A stretch of 33,591 bases of DNA. It comes from a virus (Duplodnaviria; Caudoviricetes). The stretch spans positions 1 to 33,591 of IMG/VR virus record IMGVR_UViG_3300011338_000415; one strand, 5' to 3'. Positions 1,970 through 11,945 of the stretch are shown here, piece by piece. Position 1 is the first letter of the stretch. The number at the start of each line of letters is the position of its first letter. Made by a program: the position numbers and the translations under genes. A model generated the notes under the pieces. That model saw only the letters and a program-made list of their open reading frames with translations. It was not told where the DNA came from and did not search any database.

Positions 1970-4293
1970 TGATAACAACTAAAATAAATAACGGAGATAG
2001 TTTAACGTATGCTTTTACAATTACGGGAGTAGAAGCAAATGACATTTTAAATTTAGAATTTGCAATAGGTAATTTAAGTTTTACTTTAGCAAATGGTAAA
2101 TTAGTACAAAGCAATACTAATCCTTTGTTATTTTATATTTATTTACTTTCTAAAGATACTTTCTGTCTAAATGGAAATTATCCTATTTCTATTGCAATAA
2201 ATACTGAATTATTAGGGGTTTTAAAAAAGAATTTATTAGCAAATTTATCTGTTGTAAAAACAAATACAAAAATGAATTTGCCAGTAGAAACTACTATAAT
2301 AAGTGCCACATTTGATTTGACAGTTGATGATAGCGGAATTATAGTTAATGAATACTTGCAACTAATTGCAAAAGGAGAAAAAGGTGACCAAGGTATTCAA
2401 GGTATTCAAGGTATACAAGGTATTAAAGGTGATAAAGGAGATAAAGGTGACGCTGGAGATGGGCAAACCCTTCAATCAGTTACCGATTTAGGTAGTGCTA
2501 CAACTAATCAAATTTCATCAGATGTAGGTTTTTTTATAGGTGAAAATAATAATGTAGCTTATTTATCAAAACAAAATGAAATTTTATCCATCTATATACA
2601 AGATATGGATACAGAATTTGGTTCTAATATTTTTGCTGTTTCTACTGAAGATGGAATATCTTATGATAAAATTCAAGGATTAAGAAAATGTATATTAAGA
2701 GTTACAGAAAATTTACTATCTTATAGGATATTGGATGATAATGATAATGAATTAAATAATTTTGTAGTAGATGAATTATCAACATCTTCAAAAAATGGTT
2801 TTAAATCTTTATGGGGAGAATTTGGTGATAATGGGGAATTTAGTGCAGGAACTTATTATGATGGATTGACAAGAAGATTTTATTTCTTTTCTGGGGCAGC
2901 AGATTATGGATATGCTCAACAAAGTGCATCTATAAAAACAACAGCAGAGGAAGGAATTTCAATGCAAGCAACTGGAACTGATGGCCCTTTAATTTTTTCA
3001 TCCTCAATTTATAATACTGTTGATACATTAGCTTTAAGAAAAAGTTTTTATAATATTGATACATTAGAAAATATAATTGTTAATGAATTAATACTTGGAG
3101 ATAATGATACATATTCAAAAAAATCATATAGCACAGAGGAAGGTTTTAATGGAAGTTTTATACTTTTTAATACTGGTGCAGCAGTTAATAATAATTTAAC
3201 TGGTCAATTAAGTTGGAATGATATTGATGGAACATTAGATTTAGGTCTTAAAGGCGGAAATGTTACTTTACAAATTGGACAAGAAAGTGTAATAAGAGTA
3301 GTTAATAAAACATCAACAAATATAACTTTACAAGAAAGTGCTTATCAAGCAGTTAGAATAACAGGTGCTCAAGGAAATAGATTAAAAGTAGATTTAGCAC
3401 AAGCAACAACAGATAATTTATCAGCTGAAACTATTGGTTTAGTTACTGAAACTATTGCTAATAATCAAGAAGGATTTATCACAACATCAGGTTTAGTTAG
3501 AAACATAAATACAACAGGTTCATTACAAGGTGAGACTTGGAATGATGGTGATATACTTTATCTTTCACCAACAGTTGCTGGTAGAATTACAAAAGTAAAA
3601 CCAGTTGCTCCTAATCATTTAGTAATTGTTGGTTATGTTGTTAGAGCACATATTACACAAGGTCAGATTTTTGTTAAAGTTGATAATGGTTATGAGTTAG
3701 ATGAATTACATAATGTAAAAATAAATTCAGAAACAAATAATCAATTATTAGCTTACAATAATAGTAATTCAGTTTGGGAAAATAAATCATTATCTGACAT
3801 AGGAGGTCAAAGTTTTTTTAAGAATTTACCTTACAAATATTTTAATTCTAATCAATCAATCGGAAGTAATGTTTCGGGAGAAACACAATTAATAAGAGTA
3901 GAAATACCAGCGAATACATTTTCAAGTTCGGACAAACTTTATTTTAGATTTGCATTGAGTAAAACAGGAATTATAAATGCCACAACAATTAGAGCAAAAA
4001 TATCAACTTCTCCATCAATGCCAGTTGGAGCGGCATCAATAATAGCTACTGGTTCTATTGGTGGTACTGCATTATACTGCCCAGTTGAAAGAACAATGGC
4101 AATAAATGGGGGAAATTTAAAAGGGTTTCCTTTTGCAAGTGCAAACGTTTCAGATAGTGCCACAACTACAACTGCCTGGTCAAGTGTTGCTTTTGATGTA
4201 ACACAAACACAATATTTTTATGTAAGTGCAACTCCTACCGCTATAACAACAGATGTGAGCTATTTAGAGTATTTAGAAATAACAAATATATAA
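1969..4293 (+). CDS. Tail fibre / receptor-binding protein with collagen-like segment
   Basis: 774 aa; Gly-X-Y run; modular composition; last large tail gene before lysis genes. Confidence 0.8.
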   Translation: MITTKINNGDSLTYAFTITGVEANDILNLEFAIGNLSFTLANGKLVQSNTNPLLFYIYLLSKDTFCLNGNYPISIAINTELLGVLKKNLLANLSVVKTNTKMNLPVETTIISATFDLTVDDSGIIVNEYLQLIAKGEKGDQGIQGIQGIQGIKGDKGDKGDAGDGQTLQSVTDLGSATTNQISSDVGFFIGENNNVAYLSKQNEILSIYIQDMDTEFGSNIFAVSTEDGISYDKIQGLRKCILRVTENLLSYRILDDNDNELNNFVVDELSTSSKNGFKSLWGEFGDNGEFSAGTYYDGLTRRFYFFSGAADYGYAQQSASIKTTAEEGISMQATGTDGPLIFSSSIYNTVDTLALRKSFYNIDTLENIIVNELILGDNDTYSKKSYSTEEGFNGSFILFNTGAAVNNNLTGQLSWNDIDGTLDLGLKGGNVTLQIGQESVIRVVNKTSTNITLQESAYQAVRITGAQGNRLKVDLAQATTDNLSAETIGLVTETIANNQEGFITTSGLVRNINTTGSLQGETWNDGDILYLSPTVAGRITKVKPVAPNHLVIVGYVVRAHITQGQIFVKVDNGYELDELHNVKINSETNNQLLAYNNSNSVWENKSLSDIGGQSFFKNLPYKYFNSNQSIGSNVSGETQLIRVEIPANTFSSSDKLYFRFALSKTGIINATTIRAKISTSPSMPVGAASIIATGSIGGTALYCPVERTMAINGGNLKGFPFASANVSDSATTTTAWSSVAFDVTQTQYFYVSATPTAITTDVSYLEYLEITNI
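2374..2460 (+). repeat. Collagen-like Gly-X-Y coding repeat
   Basis: GEKGDQGIQGIQGIQGIKGDKGDKGDAGD; ggtattcaa and ggtgataaa-type 9-bp units. Confidence 0.9.
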
Positions 4294-4666: not shown

Positions 4667-4829
4667 CGATTTGAAACTATATTTTTTTAATGCTATATCT
4701 ATGTTATTAAGTTTCTCAAATATTGAGAGCTTTTTAAAAATAATTCTATTAATAGCTTCTATATTCTACACGATTTTAAAAACTATTGAAACTTTAAAGA
4801 AAAAAAACAATGGCGAAAATAACGAATAA
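4656..4829 (+). CDS. Second holin/antiholin-like membrane protein (57 aa)
   Basis: Hand-translated MSHNDLKLYFFNAISMLLSFSNIESFLKIILLIASIFYTILKTIETLKKKNNGENNE; overlaps both neighbours. Confidence 0.65.
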   Translation: MSHNDLKLYFFNAISMLLSFSNIESFLKIILLIASIFYTILKTIETLKKKNNGENNE

Positions 4830-5184
4830 TTTTAGTTTAGAAGAATTTAATTGTAAAGATGGTTCTTTAATGCCTAATAATGTATTAATAAACATTATTA
4901 AATTGGCTAAAAATTTACAAGTATTGCGAGATTCAGTAGGTAAAACTATTACTATTAATTCTGCATATCGTTCACCGGAATATAATAAAAAAATAGGTGG
5001 TGTTAAAGATAGCCAACATTTAAAAGGCAATGCTTCAGATATTACTATAAAAGGAATGACACCAAAAGAAGTTGCAAAAGTAATTGAGGGTTTAATACAA
5101 AATGGTAAAATGCAACAAGGTGGTATAGGAATATATCCAAACTTTGTCCATTATGATATTCGTGGAGTTAAAGCTCGTTGGTAA
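4810..5184 (+). CDS. Endolysin, peptidase M15A-like zinc peptidase
   Basis: NFSLEEF.C, SAYR, SQH..G.A.D and FVHYD.R motifs. Confidence 0.9.
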   Translation: MAKITNNFSLEEFNCKDGSLMPNNVLINIIKLAKNLQVLRDSVGKTITINSAYRSPEYNKKIGGVKDSQHLKGNASDITIKGMTPKEVAKVIEGLIQNGKMQQGGIGIYPNFVHYDIRGVKARW

Positions 5185-5188
5185 AATC

Positions 5189-5222
5189 AAAAAAACCCTT
5201 ACAACTAATGCAAGGGTTTTTT
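5189..5222. terminator. Bidirectional intrinsic terminator, better formed on the minus strand
   Basis: Minus strand cccttgca-ttagt-tgtaaggg then T7, with a G.U pair; the same position is an A.C mismatch on +. Confidence 0.85.
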
Positions 5223-5254
5223 CTTAACTATTAACTAAACAAAGAAATTATGAA
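5189..5254 (-). ncRNA. Putative ~65-nt small antisense RNA
   Basis: Lies between a complete minus-strand promoter and a minus-favoured terminator; too short for a meaningful ORF; 5' end approximate. Confidence 0.6.
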
Positions 5255-5258
5255 TATG

Positions 5259-5289
5259 CAAATATAACATATTCCATTTAATATACAAA
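5259..5289 (-). promoter_or_regulatory. Bacteroidota sigma promoter, leftward
   Basis: TTTG (5289-5286), 19-nt spacer, TATATTTG (5266-5259): full -33/-7 consensus. Confidence 0.75.
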
Positions 5290-5297
5290 TAATTTTA

Positions 5298-5305
5298 TAT
5301 ATTTG
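5298..5305 (+). promoter_or_regulatory. Bacteroidota -7 promoter box
   Basis: TATATTTG ending 24 nt before ATG 5330. Confidence 0.7.
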
Positions 5306-5329: not shown

Positions 5330-6496
5330 ATGATTGTTTCAAAATGGAAGAATTACGATACACAATTAACTGATTTATTGCAAGATAATCGAAATTGTAG
5401 TGATACAGAAATTGCAAAAAAACTATTAAATACAAATGAAGGTGGATACCTTAATAAAGAAGTAGATTTACTTCGTACTTACATTAAAAGAAATAGAAAG
5501 CGTTTATTAGATACTCACGAGGGTGTATTTGATGCAACAGATGAGTTAGATGTACCAAATACTTCTGTTAAACATTTGTGGCTTAAAACAAAGAAAAGTA
5601 GTATATTTATTAAAAATCCTAATTTTTTAGAAAATTCTGAAAATGATTTAGAATTAATTAAAACGGAATTATTAAAAGAATTACAAAATTACGTACCTAA
5701 ATATCCAAAAATTAAAAGAAAAGAAAATAACAAAAATAAAAGGTTATTTGTTTTTGACCCTGCAGATATTCATATTGGTAAATTATGTAGCTCTTTTGAA
5801 GTTGGTGAAACTTATAATAATCAAATAGCAGTACAAAGAGTTTTAAAAGGGTGTAAAGGAATTTTAAATGAAATTAAAGAAAATAGTATTGATAAAATTT
5901 TATTTGTTATAGGTAATGATATTTTACATATTGACAATACTAAAAGAACCACAACAAGTGGAACACCACAAGATACAGATGGAATGTGGCACACAAATTT
6001 TTTAATTGCAAAACAATTATATGTAGATATTGTAGAAATTTTAATGAGTATTGCAGATGTTCACGTAGTTTACAATCCAAGTAATCACGATTATACAAAT
6101 GGTTTCTTTTTAGCACAAGTAATTGAAACGCATTTTAAGGATTGTAAAAATGTTACATTTGATACTACAATAGCACATAGAAAATACTTTGTATATGGTA
6201 AAAACTTAATAGGTACTACTCACGGTGATGGTGCAAAAGCTCAAGATTTACCTTTACTAATGGCAAATGAAAGTAAAGATTGGAGTACTTGTAAGCATAA
6301 ATATATTTATACACACCATATGCACCACAAAATTAGCAAAGATTATATGAGTGTATGTGTTGAAACATTAAGAAGTCCAAGCGGTACAGATAGTTGGCAT
6401 CATAGAAACGGATATCAACACGCACCAAAAGCAGTTGAGGGATACATACACGATAAAGAACACGGACAAGTACAACGTTTAACATTTATTTTTTAA
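5330..6496 (+). CDS. Calcineurin-like metallophosphoesterase with N-terminal extension (possible HTH)
   Basis: D.H (ADIHIG), GND, SNHD, HGD and HHMHH metal-binding motifs. Confidence 0.85.
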   Translation: MIVSKWKNYDTQLTDLLQDNRNCSDTEIAKKLLNTNEGGYLNKEVDLLRTYIKRNRKRLLDTHEGVFDATDELDVPNTSVKHLWLKTKKSSIFIKNPNFLENSENDLELIKTELLKELQNYVPKYPKIKRKENNKNKRLFVFDPADIHIGKLCSSFEVGETYNNQIAVQRVLKGCKGILNEIKENSIDKILFVIGNDILHIDNTKRTTTSGTPQDTDGMWHTNFLIAKQLYVDIVEILMSIADVHVVYNPSNHDYTNGFFLAQVIETHFKDCKNVTFDTTIAHRKYFVYGKNLIGTTHGDGAKAQDLPLLMANESKDWSTCKHKYIYTHHMHHKISKDYMSVCVETLRSPSGTDSWHHRNGYQHAPKAVEGYIHDKEHGQVQRLTFIF

Positions 6497-6502
6497 ATTA
6501 TT

Positions 6503-7126
6503 ATGATAGGTATTTATAAAATAACAAACCCAAAAAATAGGGTTTATGTAGGGCAAAGTATAAACATAGAAAAAAGATTTAAAACATATAAATCTGAATT
6601 TGGAAAAGGTCAATCTAAATTATATAATTCATTTATTAAATATGGAGTAGAAAATCATATTTTTGAAGTAATACAAGAATGTAAAACGGATAAATTAAAT
6701 GAGCTTGAAAGATACTATCAAGAATTATATAATTGTTTAAATCACGGACTAAATTGTGTTTATGTTAGTACCAATGCAAGAAGTGGAAAAGTAAGTGAAG
6801 AAACAAGGTTAAAAATGATTAAAGCTCAAATTGGTAATAAAAAGTGGTTAGGTAAAAAACATACTGAAGAAACAAAATTAAAGATGAGTAAATCTATGAA
6901 AGGGATAAAAAGAAGCTCTGAATTTTGTAAGAATATAAGTGAAAGAATGAAAGGTAAACATACAGGAATGATTAGCCCAAATACAAAATTAGTATTAGAT
7001 GTTTTTAATGGTATTTATTACGAAAGTTTACGAGAAGCATATAAATCATCTAATATAAATTACAATACATTAAAAGCTAATTTATCAAGATATAAAATAA
7101 ACAAAACTAATTTTATTTACGTATAA
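6503..7126 (+). CDS. Free-standing GIY-YIG homing endonuclease with NUMOD3-type repeats
   Basis: GIYKITN...YVGQS, conserved R and E; SEETRLKM and HTEETKLKMS repeats. Confidence 0.92.
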   Translation: MIGIYKITNPKNRVYVGQSINIEKRFKTYKSEFGKGQSKLYNSFIKYGVENHIFEVIQECKTDKLNELERYYQELYNCLNHGLNCVYVSTNARSGKVSEETRLKMIKAQIGNKKWLGKKHTEETKLKMSKSMKGIKRSSEFCKNISERMKGKHTGMISPNTKLVLDVFNGIYYESLREAYKSSNINYNTLKANLSRYKINKTNFIYV

Positions 7127-8572: not shown

Positions 8573-8585
8573 ATAAAAAAAATAT

Positions 8586-8608
8586 GGGGAGCAGCATCCT
8601 ACACTGCA
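8586..8608 (+). promoter_or_regulatory. GGGG-hairpin intergenic element, copy 1
   Basis: GGGGA-GCAG-catcctaca-CTGC; GC-rich island; related to 17121..17140. Confidence 0.45.
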
Positions 8609-8630
8609 TTAACTTTTAAAAAACAAAATT

Positions 8631-10250: not shown

Positions 10251-10292
10251 TAATAAAATATTTTTTTATTAAATAAATTATATTTACATTTG
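10251..10292 (+). promoter_or_regulatory. Promoter of recombination operon with operator-like palindrome
   Basis: Perfect TAATAAAA-N5-TTTTATTA at 10251 and TACATTTG at 10285-10292. Confidence 0.75.
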
Positions 10293-10320
10293 CAATATTA
10301 TTAACATAAACAAAAATATT

Positions 10321-10824
10321 ATGAGTAAAGAAAAAAAACACCATTACAGAAATGTATTTAAGTCAGACCATTTGGGAAGTGCTGATTTAGAAGATTTAAT
10401 TGAACAAGGTAGTAATCTATGTTTTACAATTAGAGAAGTTAAACAAGAATTTGGAGCAAAAGTAGCAGGTAAAAAAGGAGATTTTAATATTGCTTATTTT
10501 GTTGAACCAATTAAACCTTTAGTTTTAAATGCAACAAATTCAAAAATAATTAGGTCTTTTGCCGGTAATAATTCATTTGTAGAAAATTGGAAAAACATAG
10601 CAATAGAATTATATATAGATGAAAACGTAAGAGCTGTTACTGGAGGCATAACACAAGGTGTTAGAATTAGACCAATACAACCTCGTATTAAAGTTAAACA
10701 AGATTTTATAGTAGATATGTTTGATAGAGCTAAAAATGCTGGAGCTACAATAGAAAAAATAAAAACTACTTACAATGTAACACCGGAAATTGAAAAAAAA
10801 TATAACGATTATGTTACAACGTAG
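10321..10824 (+). CDS. Putative single-strand annealing / recombination protein
   Basis: Positional only: directly upstream of exonuclease and SSB-like genes; no RecT/ERF/Sak motif recognised. Confidence 0.45.
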   Translation: MSKEKKHHYRNVFKSDHLGSADLEDLIEQGSNLCFTIREVKQEFGAKVAGKKGDFNIAYFVEPIKPLVLNATNSKIIRSFAGNNSFVENWKNIAIELYIDENVRAVTGGITQGVRIRPIQPRIKVKQDFIVDMFDRAKNAGATIEKIKTTYNVTPEIEKKYNDYVTT

Positions 10825-11428
10825 TAATGATTGGTTTGAAGCTCGTAAAGGTAGATTTACAGCTTCAGAAATCCATAAACTTTTAGGTGTTCGTGGATTA
10901 GGGCAAACAGGAGAAAGTTATATATTTGAGAAAGCAATAGAAGATGTTTTTGGTTTAGATGAAGAAAATAATTTTACATCTTTTGATATGCAAAGAGGTG
11001 TTGCTTTAGAACCTTTAGCTTTTAGAAAGTTTAAAGAAATAAAAGAATTTGAATTTTTAGATGTACAAGAAACTTCATTTTTTTCTTATGGTTTAGATGC
11101 TGGTGCTTCTCCAGATGGTTTAGTTGGAAACAATGCAATTTTAGAAATTAAATGCCCAAGACCAACAAAATTTTTTAATTTAGTAGCTAAAGGTTATGAT
11201 GCTATTGATAAAGAATACATTGCACAAATGCAAATGCAAATAATGTGTACAAATTCTGAAAAAGCATATTTTTTTAATTACATTATTTTTAATGGAGTTG
11301 AAATGTGGCACGAAATAGAAATTAATCGTGATGAAAAAATGATTGATTTAATTAAAGAAAGAATTGAACAAGCAATAAAAATTAAAAACGAGTACAAAGA
11401 ATATTTAATAACAAATAAACAATTTTAA
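10811..11428 (+). CDS. YqaJ / lambda-exonuclease-family nuclease
   Basis: QRS.DW...R....TASE, G...E, ASPDG, LEIKCP, Y..QMQ.Q; probable ATG 10811. Confidence 0.92.
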   Translation: MLQRSNDWFEARKGRFTASEIHKLLGVRGLGQTGESYIFEKAIEDVFGLDEENNFTSFDMQRGVALEPLAFRKFKEIKEFEFLDVQETSFFSYGLDAGASPDGLVGNNAILEIKCPRPTKFFNLVAKGYDAIDKEYIAQMQMQIMCTNSEKAYFFNYIIFNGVEMWHEIEINRDEKMIDLIKERIEQAIKIKNEYKEYLITNKQF

Positions 11429-11429
11429 A

Positions 11430-11783
11430 ATGAGTGAAGTAATTGGTAGTATTATCCATATTGGAAATACAGAATTAGTAGGAAGTGCAGGTACTTTCAA
11501 AAAAAGATTATTAGTAGTTAAAACAAATGAGCAATACGCTCAAGAAGTGCCTATTGATTTTGTACAAGACAAATGCGAAGTATTAGATAAATATGCATTA
11601 GGAGATAATGTAAAGGTAGCTATTAATATTCGTGGTAATAAGTACAATGATAAATGGTATTGCTCTTTAAATGGATGGAGAATAGATAAAGAAAGTACAG
11701 AAAGTGTAATTAATACACAAGTAGAAACTTTTACAGCACCATCAGAAGTATTACAACAAGCTGAAAACGACTTACCGTTTTAA
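11430..11783 (+). CDS. DUF3127-family OB-fold, SSB-like protein
   Basis: FKKR..V..T.EQY.Q...F.QDK, NIRG...W..SL.GWRI; acidic tail ending DLPF. Confidence 0.85.
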   Translation: MSEVIGSIIHIGNTELVGSAGTFKKRLLVVKTNEQYAQEVPIDFVQDKCEVLDKYALGDNVKVAINIRGNKYNDKWYCSLNGWRIDKESTESVINTQVETFTAPSEVLQQAENDLPF

Positions 11784-11834: not shown

Positions 11835-11842
11835 TATATTTG
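11835..11842 (+). promoter_or_regulatory. Bacteroidota -7 promoter box of replication operon
   Basis: TATATTTG. Confidence 0.7.
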
Positions 11843-11846
11843 CAAA

Positions 11847-11945
11847 GTAATGAAGTGAGAAGCATTGCAAATTTATTGAAAAAATTATACAAAATCCTAT
11901 TAGGAAAGCACTTCTCACAATACTGCTGACTTAATGGGATTTTTT
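11847..11945 (+). ncRNA. Structured leader RNA: two hairpins with complementary loops
   Basis: Loop GTGAGAAG (11855-62) complementary to loop CTTCTCAC (11911-18); 14-bp basal stem with G.U pairs and U-tract. Confidence 0.7.

Follow-up and report, generated by a model that had tools for sequence, protein, structure and literature searches.

A conserved promoter-to-terminator unit in Flavobacterium-type phages encodes a predicted small RNA that likely pairs with the leader of the phage recombination operon

Introduction

Bacteroidota ribosomes use an A-rich initiation region instead of a Shine-Dalgarno site (PMC7366714). In Bacteroides thetaiotaomicron, the small RNAs FopS and GibS combine a canonical TAnnTTTG promoter with a single-stranded 5' part and an intrinsic terminator, and, in a phylum that does without Shine-Dalgarno pairing, their long AU-rich duplexes cover the start codon (PMC11697453, PMC7366714). 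Binding of RbpB and repression of susC-type mRNAs are further features of this group. FopS is a chromosomal family of 12-15 copies that represses polysaccharide-utilisation mRNAs, and one phage occurrence is mentioned (PMC11697453). Among phages, the c4 RNA of P1/P7 acts in trans on the phage's own ribosome-binding region. It carries its seeds in loops, its seed/target pairs differ between relatives, and it blocks antirepressor synthesis in these temperate phages (PMC12197685). P22 sar, lambda OOP and aQ, and PAK_P4as15 are likewise small phage RNAs that lower phage-gene expression by pairing. In the parts of this 2025 phage-sRNA review considered here, most examples come from temperate enterobacterial phages, and the words Bacteroid- and Flavobacter- are absent from its text (PMC12197685).

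Here we analyse a Caudoviricetes sequence of 33,591 nucleotides (hereafter the window; IMG/VR record IMGVR_UViG_3300011338_000415), in which a first-pass annotation had proposed a stand-alone small RNA gene directed against start codons. The predicted RNA resembles FopS and GibS in its promoter, its single-stranded 5' part, its intrinsic terminator and its long AU-rich pairing over a start codon, all as predicted here. Unlike FopS, the phage unit is usually single-copy, its seed is variable and its predicted targets are the phage's own leaders. A multicopy chromosomal family in the host was not found, with at most two loose matches per genome among 101 Flavobacterium-genus genomes.

As for c4, the computed pairing and its co-variation point to phage-specific seed/target pairs at the phage's own initiation region and to action in trans. 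However, the seed is here a linear 5' tail, predicted to be unpaired, and the predicted target is a YqaJ exonuclease/SSB operon or another early operon. The sar, OOP, aQ and PAK_P4as15 RNAs overlap their targets, being cis-antisense, whereas this unit lies 5 kb from its predicted target and the pairing is imperfect.

By analogy, the RNA would work like GibS/FopS and P1/P7 c4, without a match in Rfam. As the first-pass annotation anticipated, it matches no Rfam family: the window gave 0 matches at E<=5, and only sub-threshold, terminator-driven matches were obtained for the region (29) and for 10 homologous loci (8). The Rfam C4 model gave no match. Neither did any FopS or GibS model that Rfam 15 may hold, at the gathering score or at E<=10. 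No description of the unit family was found in the open-access literature, although supplements with lists of candidate phage RNAs may contain it.

Genomic setting and structure of the unit

The record is 33.6 kb long, 87% complete and 27% G+C. Its plus strand carries head, tail, lysis and replication genes of a siphovirus-like phage, and among annotated genomes it is closest to Flavobacterium phages from the Baltic, Lillamyvirus hemulen6-1 being one example. The minus strand has three long ORFs (99-124 aa and shorter), which overlap plus-strand genes and look spurious; thus, the earlier statement that all genes lie on the plus strand holds in practice. The unit sits within the 145 bases that separate the M15 endolysin gene from gene 5330 (Table 1). 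A GIY-YIG-type homing endonuclease is encoded directly 3' of gene 5330 (6503-7126).

The leftward Bacteroidota promoter described in the first-pass annotation is indeed complete, with a -33 element, a spacer and a -7 element on the minus strand. There are 94 TAnnTTTG boxes on the two strands of the window, seven of which have TTTG 17-23 nt upstream, and among these seven only the box at 5266-5259 falls outside an ORF. The -7 element is identical in all seven aligned units of the lineage to which the window belongs (lineage A). In F. johnsoniae the G of the -7 box lies at -5 (PMC6847099), which places the predicted +1 at 5254 and gives a predicted minus-strand RNA of ~65 nt (5254-5189). Its 5' end would consist of an anti-AUG seed, UCAUAAU, followed by many U residues; this 5' part is antisense to an A-rich leader plus ATGAA. 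A simple sigma-70 scanner, which models the wrong promoter type, did not list this terminator.

The terminator hairpin folds at -18.7 kcal/mol on the minus strand, with one G.U pair (z -4.7; 0 of 200 shuffles), and at -12.0 kcal/mol on the plus strand, where it is followed by six U instead of seven. Because the plus-strand version also folds and has a U tail, the hairpin can also end the late (endolysin) transcript. The earlier view that the terminator pairs properly only on the minus strand is therefore right as to the better fold, and slightly overstated in its "only", since the element can serve both directions. Covariation in the stem is uninformative in lineage A, where 0 of 20 pairs have two-sided changes. 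On the plus strand an ATG at 5250 opens the five-codon ORF MNMQI, as first described. The promoter-to-terminator unit in the 145-base gap is a real feature of this genome.

Table 1. Coordinates of the unit, its neighbours and its predicted target in the window.
Feature	Position	Strand	Basis or remark
Peptidase M15 endolysin, end of the late module	4810..5184	+	context
Intrinsic terminator hairpin with U7 tail	5189..5223 (core stem 5196-5216)	-	fold
Unpaired 5' part of the predicted sRNA	5224..5254	-	31 nt, predicted unpaired
-7 element TATATTTG	5259..5266	-	19-nt spacer from TTTG
-33 element TTTG, leftward Bacteroidota promoter	5286..5289	-	consensus per PMC7366714
-7 box for gene 5330, rightward, back-to-back with the leftward promoter	5298..5305	+	context
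PHROG 704 'DNA repair exonuclease' family gene	5330..6496	+	context
-7 box TACATTTG of the predicted target operon	10285..10292	+	
Predicted target: entire 24-nt leader and start codon of gene 10321	10297..10325	+	pairing
Predicted target operon	10321..11783	+	PHROG 21613 protein (uncharacterised), YqaJ-type exonuclease, DUF3127 / single-strand binding protein

Distribution of the unit

The same unit recurs in related phages, behind close relatives of the endolysin and before relatives of gene 5330. A strict box-seed-tail pattern matches an estimated ~240 IMG/VR stretches, and a hairpin, which the pattern does not demand, precedes the U tail in 115 of 120 among the matches listed. Across 185,579 prokaryote genomes the same pattern gave 36 matches, 13 of them with a hairpin. 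One of them comes from a Flavobacterium bin, on a 34.6-kb contig where an amidase gene adjoins the unit. A looser pattern gave 27 matches in 25 of the 101 Flavobacterium-genus genomes (control, 6), few of which have an evident hairpin when judged by eye. Thus, the unit is enriched in phages. An earlier loose pattern had returned mostly noise, with at least 15 of 120 matches flagged as having a terminator.

Most phage records carry one anti-AUG unit. The recurring units differ in their lysins, hairpins and spacers, and they are also found behind unrelated lysins and terminators. In a second group of related records (lineage B) the box lies just ahead of the first early promoter and starts on the stop codon that ends the last gene after the lysin, a placement that resembles that of a 3'-UTR sRNA. 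The cultured phage Lillamyvirus hemulen6-1 (host Flavobacterium sp. LMO6) has the unit, unannotated; in its GenBank record one part of the unit falls at each end. Both NC_048833.1 (L614) and G037 have their first base exactly between the unit's terminator and its payload; this split hides the unit from annotation and from pattern scans.

Other records vary the payload. L008, L010 and L011 (~3375-3540) and L604 (G040, near 3121) have two tandem promoter-payload-terminator units after the endolysin, one with the anti-AUG seed and the other with an unrelated payload. The same leftward promoter with different payloads occurs in L009, L048 and L078, either behind the lysin or ahead of the gene-5330 relative, and in L600 (G038, near 386). 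A terminator is also present in L009, L048 and L600, and one alternative payload contains a run of CAA repeats. The slot looks like an exchangeable sRNA cassette.

Predicted pairing with phage leaders

Pairing was computed with RNAduplex as hybridisation energy only, excluding accessibility. The first 30 nt of the predicted RNA pair best, among 52 starts, with gene 10321 (-21.4 kcal/mol), which is also the best of all 50-nt plus-strand windows scanned (next best, -17.6). None of 300 shuffles reaches -21.4 at any start. An RNA that starts at 5254 would pair at -19.9 kcal/mol with 10321, -16.3 with 9522 and -15.9 with 7235. With host starts as background (1/750, see below), one such site among 52 starts is expected by chance in ~7% of cases, a figure that applies to this genome alone. 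The first-pass annotation had pointed to the recombination operon as a target on the strength of a match of 23 nt over 27 with its leader. The match holds with one gap, and the operon stands up as the best predicted target. In the protein atlas, gene 10321 is a 'hypothetical protein' only.

Three further starts had been named as targets because they match the first 10 nt of the RNA. Their common sequence, AAATTATGAA, is indeed located at 5245, 8626, 9517 and 9688, but genes 8631, 9522 and 9693 are weak matches and find no support as specific targets: 9522 reaches -16.3 and 8631 -13.8 kcal/mol, and 9693 is outside the best 8 of 52.

To compare phages, 30 RNAs were paired with the promoter-proximal leaders of 30 records, with lineages set by eye from the seeds. 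Mean pairing within lineages A, B and C is -16.4, -18.4 and -13.0 kcal/mol, against -10.6 to -13.9 with other lineages. The double-centred diagonal residual is -2.84 kcal/mol (0 of 20000 permutations), although the records are related and the permutation p values therefore overstate independence. With one record per group, the median p is 0.006 (12 groups). Leaving out G015 and G026 (10 groups), it is 0.0125, with 87% of draws below 0.05 and 13% without significance. The effect is weaker at non-promoter starts, with a residual of -1.12 for best pairing (22/5000) and -0.08 for mean pairing (983/5000). For 7 of the 30 RNAs the own record ranked below 10th of 30, and several such records are incomplete.

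For lineage A, the partner leader belongs to the operon with the SSB gene at its end, even where the first gene of that operon is unrelated to that of the window. The window allele pairs at -19.5 kcal/mol with its own leader and at -10.8 to -15.4 with those of relatives, and the G007 allele also pairs best with its own SSB-operon leader. An allele common to G005, G006, G013 and G028 reaches -16.8 to -17.5 with the leaders of its carriers and -12.6 with that of the window. The G008 allele, also of lineage A, fits none of the SSB-operon leaders well (-7.6 to -10.5), and an SSB-operon leader was not located in G009 or G001. The lineage-B RNA has a second seed, antisense to AACAATTAA. Several early leaders, among them the one for an Erf-type annealing protein, have this sequence as a tag at their 5' end. 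The best partner in lineage C is a metallophosphoesterase leader in three of four records. In hemulen6-1 (-17.5) and G037 (-18.8) the best partners are not promoter-proximal, and a strong promoter-proximal partner of the Lillamyvirus unit was not found. Overall, the computed pairing shows lineage-matched complementarity, in which predicted seed and leader change together.

Our preferred reading, to which we give a probability of roughly 0.6, is that a conserved unit of Flavobacterium-type phages makes a ~65-nt trans-acting sRNA that likely pairs at 10297-10325 and likely lowers translation of the recombination operon. Host RNA polymerase would transcribe the sRNA from phage entry onward, and the accumulating RNA would cover the A-rich, Shine-Dalgarno-free initiation region. 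In lineage B, one RNA would cover several early leaders that have the 5' tag in common. The outcome could be that output of early and recombination proteins is braked with a delay, in phages without a detected integrase. The tyrosine integrase PF00589 was found in 0 of 27 records, 15 of which are at least 90% complete, and the published account of the Baltic isolates calls them virulent (PMC7077304); both favour the delayed brake. If so, a cassette that is widespread among apparently lytic Flavobacterium phages of aquatic habitats would give lytic development a further, post-transcriptional layer of timing, and its many natural seed/leader pairs would offer material on antisense repression without Shine-Dalgarno pairing or Hfq.

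More tentatively, and with considerable doubt, the unit may be a swappable, RNA-only master repressor of 60-70 nt in integrase-less Flavobacterium phages. Its anti-AUG and anti-5'-tag seeds would co-evolve with the tags of the phage's own early leaders, and the repressor would govern the switch from early to late expression and sort lytic phages into RNA-based immunity groups.

The lineage-specific seed/leader pairs, with their fine-scale co-variation, would also fit a homoimmunity, superinfection-exclusion or carrier-state device. Such an RNA, once abundant, would shut off incoming kin at their early leaders, with self-pairing as its lock-and-key signature, as for P1/P7 c4. Cross pairing inside lineages often equals self pairing, and c4 and STnc6030 provide precedents (PMC12197685). 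However, with PF00589 in none of the 27 records there is no evident lysogenic state to protect, and we regard exclusion as unlikely, even though sequence alone does not separate it from a self-timer.

Host targets

A receptor gene of the host had also been suggested as a target. We found 16 matches in 14 of 61 Flavobacterium genomes, on scattered genes, and no conserved host or receptor target among these 61 genomes; by eye, the matches are not enriched for one type of gene. The receptor-gene part of the original proposal is thus not supported, whereas support was obtained for the stand-alone anti-start-codon sRNA gene at its core, for its conservation, for better-than-shuffle pairing and for the recombination operon as target.

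Less likely again than exclusion, in our view, is a general translation damper whose main targets are host mRNAs, or which acts broadly at any AUUAUGAA-type start, in which case the match with phage leaders would follow from a common leader style. Consistent with such a role, the anti-AUG seed is the most conserved part of the unit, host matches exceed the control (16 against 6), and known Bacteroides sRNAs of like shape hit chromosomal mRNAs (PMC11697453, PMC7366714). Moreover, one of 750 host starts, drawn from 800 kb of sequence in two genomes of the genus Flavobacterium, reaches -18 kcal/mol (at -21.9), and a 3-Mb host would at that rate hold a few equally good sites. Against it, the host matches fall here and there on unrelated genes, and no promoter-proximal host leader out of 106 has a pairing energy below -14.6 kcal/mol, an indirect test in which genomes of the genus Flavobacterium stand in for the host. 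In addition, the second seed follows the leader tag of its own phage lineage, and this tag, AACAATTAA, is rare in host leaders (1 of 106).

Controls on the pattern

Searches that demanded only part of the pattern were used as controls on circularity. With box and tail only, 24 of 69 unique hairpin units have TCAT in their first 20 nt, compared with 3 of 48 non-hairpin matches; for the control ATG, the same search gave 20 of 69 and 11 of 48. With seed and tail only, lineage B has the box in 56 of 56 unique hairpin units, which are not independent because the records are related to each other, and in one of six non-hairpin matches (promoter-box background, 85 of 3380 random windows). The same search with the lineage-A pattern found the box in 14 of 24 hairpin matches and 0 of 20 non-hairpin matches, and the 10 hairpin matches without a box resemble ordinary gene ends.

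Orientation was scored in 36 records, whole or in large part and including the window, of which 30 have the standard box and seed. The unit runs against the majority coding strand in 11 of these 30 and with it in 19. Of 82 unique units, 69 have the more stable hairpin on the sRNA strand and eight have it on the opposite one. A conserved micro-peptide read from the ATG of the opposite strand was considered and rejected: gaps occur in all three frames, and the ORFs range from 2 to 100 aa (median 10.5; 86 unique units). The pattern match in G015 is the true start of a 152-aa gene on the opposite strand, and that in G026 is doubtful. The sequencing runs examined for RNA, seven of 12 listed, yielded unstranded contigs, mostly from relatives or probably of DNA origin.

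The least likely reading is that there is no regulatory RNA and that the locus is a plus-strand leader that follows a leaky terminator and contains the micro-ORF MNMQI, or else an inverted leader relic beside a bidirectional AT-rich promoter that yields noise transcripts only: the low G+C (27%), the back-to-back divergent boxes and the real gene start in G015 would fit it, but a conserved peptide is absent from the 86 unique units, in 19 of 30 records the AUG lies on the minority strand, and promoter, seed and terminator strand concur in independent searches.

Other elements in the window

Several other regions of the genome drew our attention. Before gene 8631, a short non-coding stretch (8575-8615) has a G+C content above its surroundings. 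In G007, the related gene is preceded by part of this stretch, which is possibly a small cis element. In comparison with the close relatives L554, L557 and L558, the first two genes of the SSB operon (10321-11428) are swapped for unrelated ones, and the promoter, leader and first codons of the operon are retained despite this swap.

A second leader, at 11847-11945 on the plus strand, lies between a promoter at 11835 and the replication genes and is conserved in seven other records, including Lillamyvirus hemulen6-1. It has no Rfam match. Two complementary segments of this leader co-change between phages, and one of them alternatively forms a terminator-like hairpin with a U tail, which suggests a putative attenuator. 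A minus-strand box at 11875 could yield a cis-antisense RNA over the 5' part of this leader.
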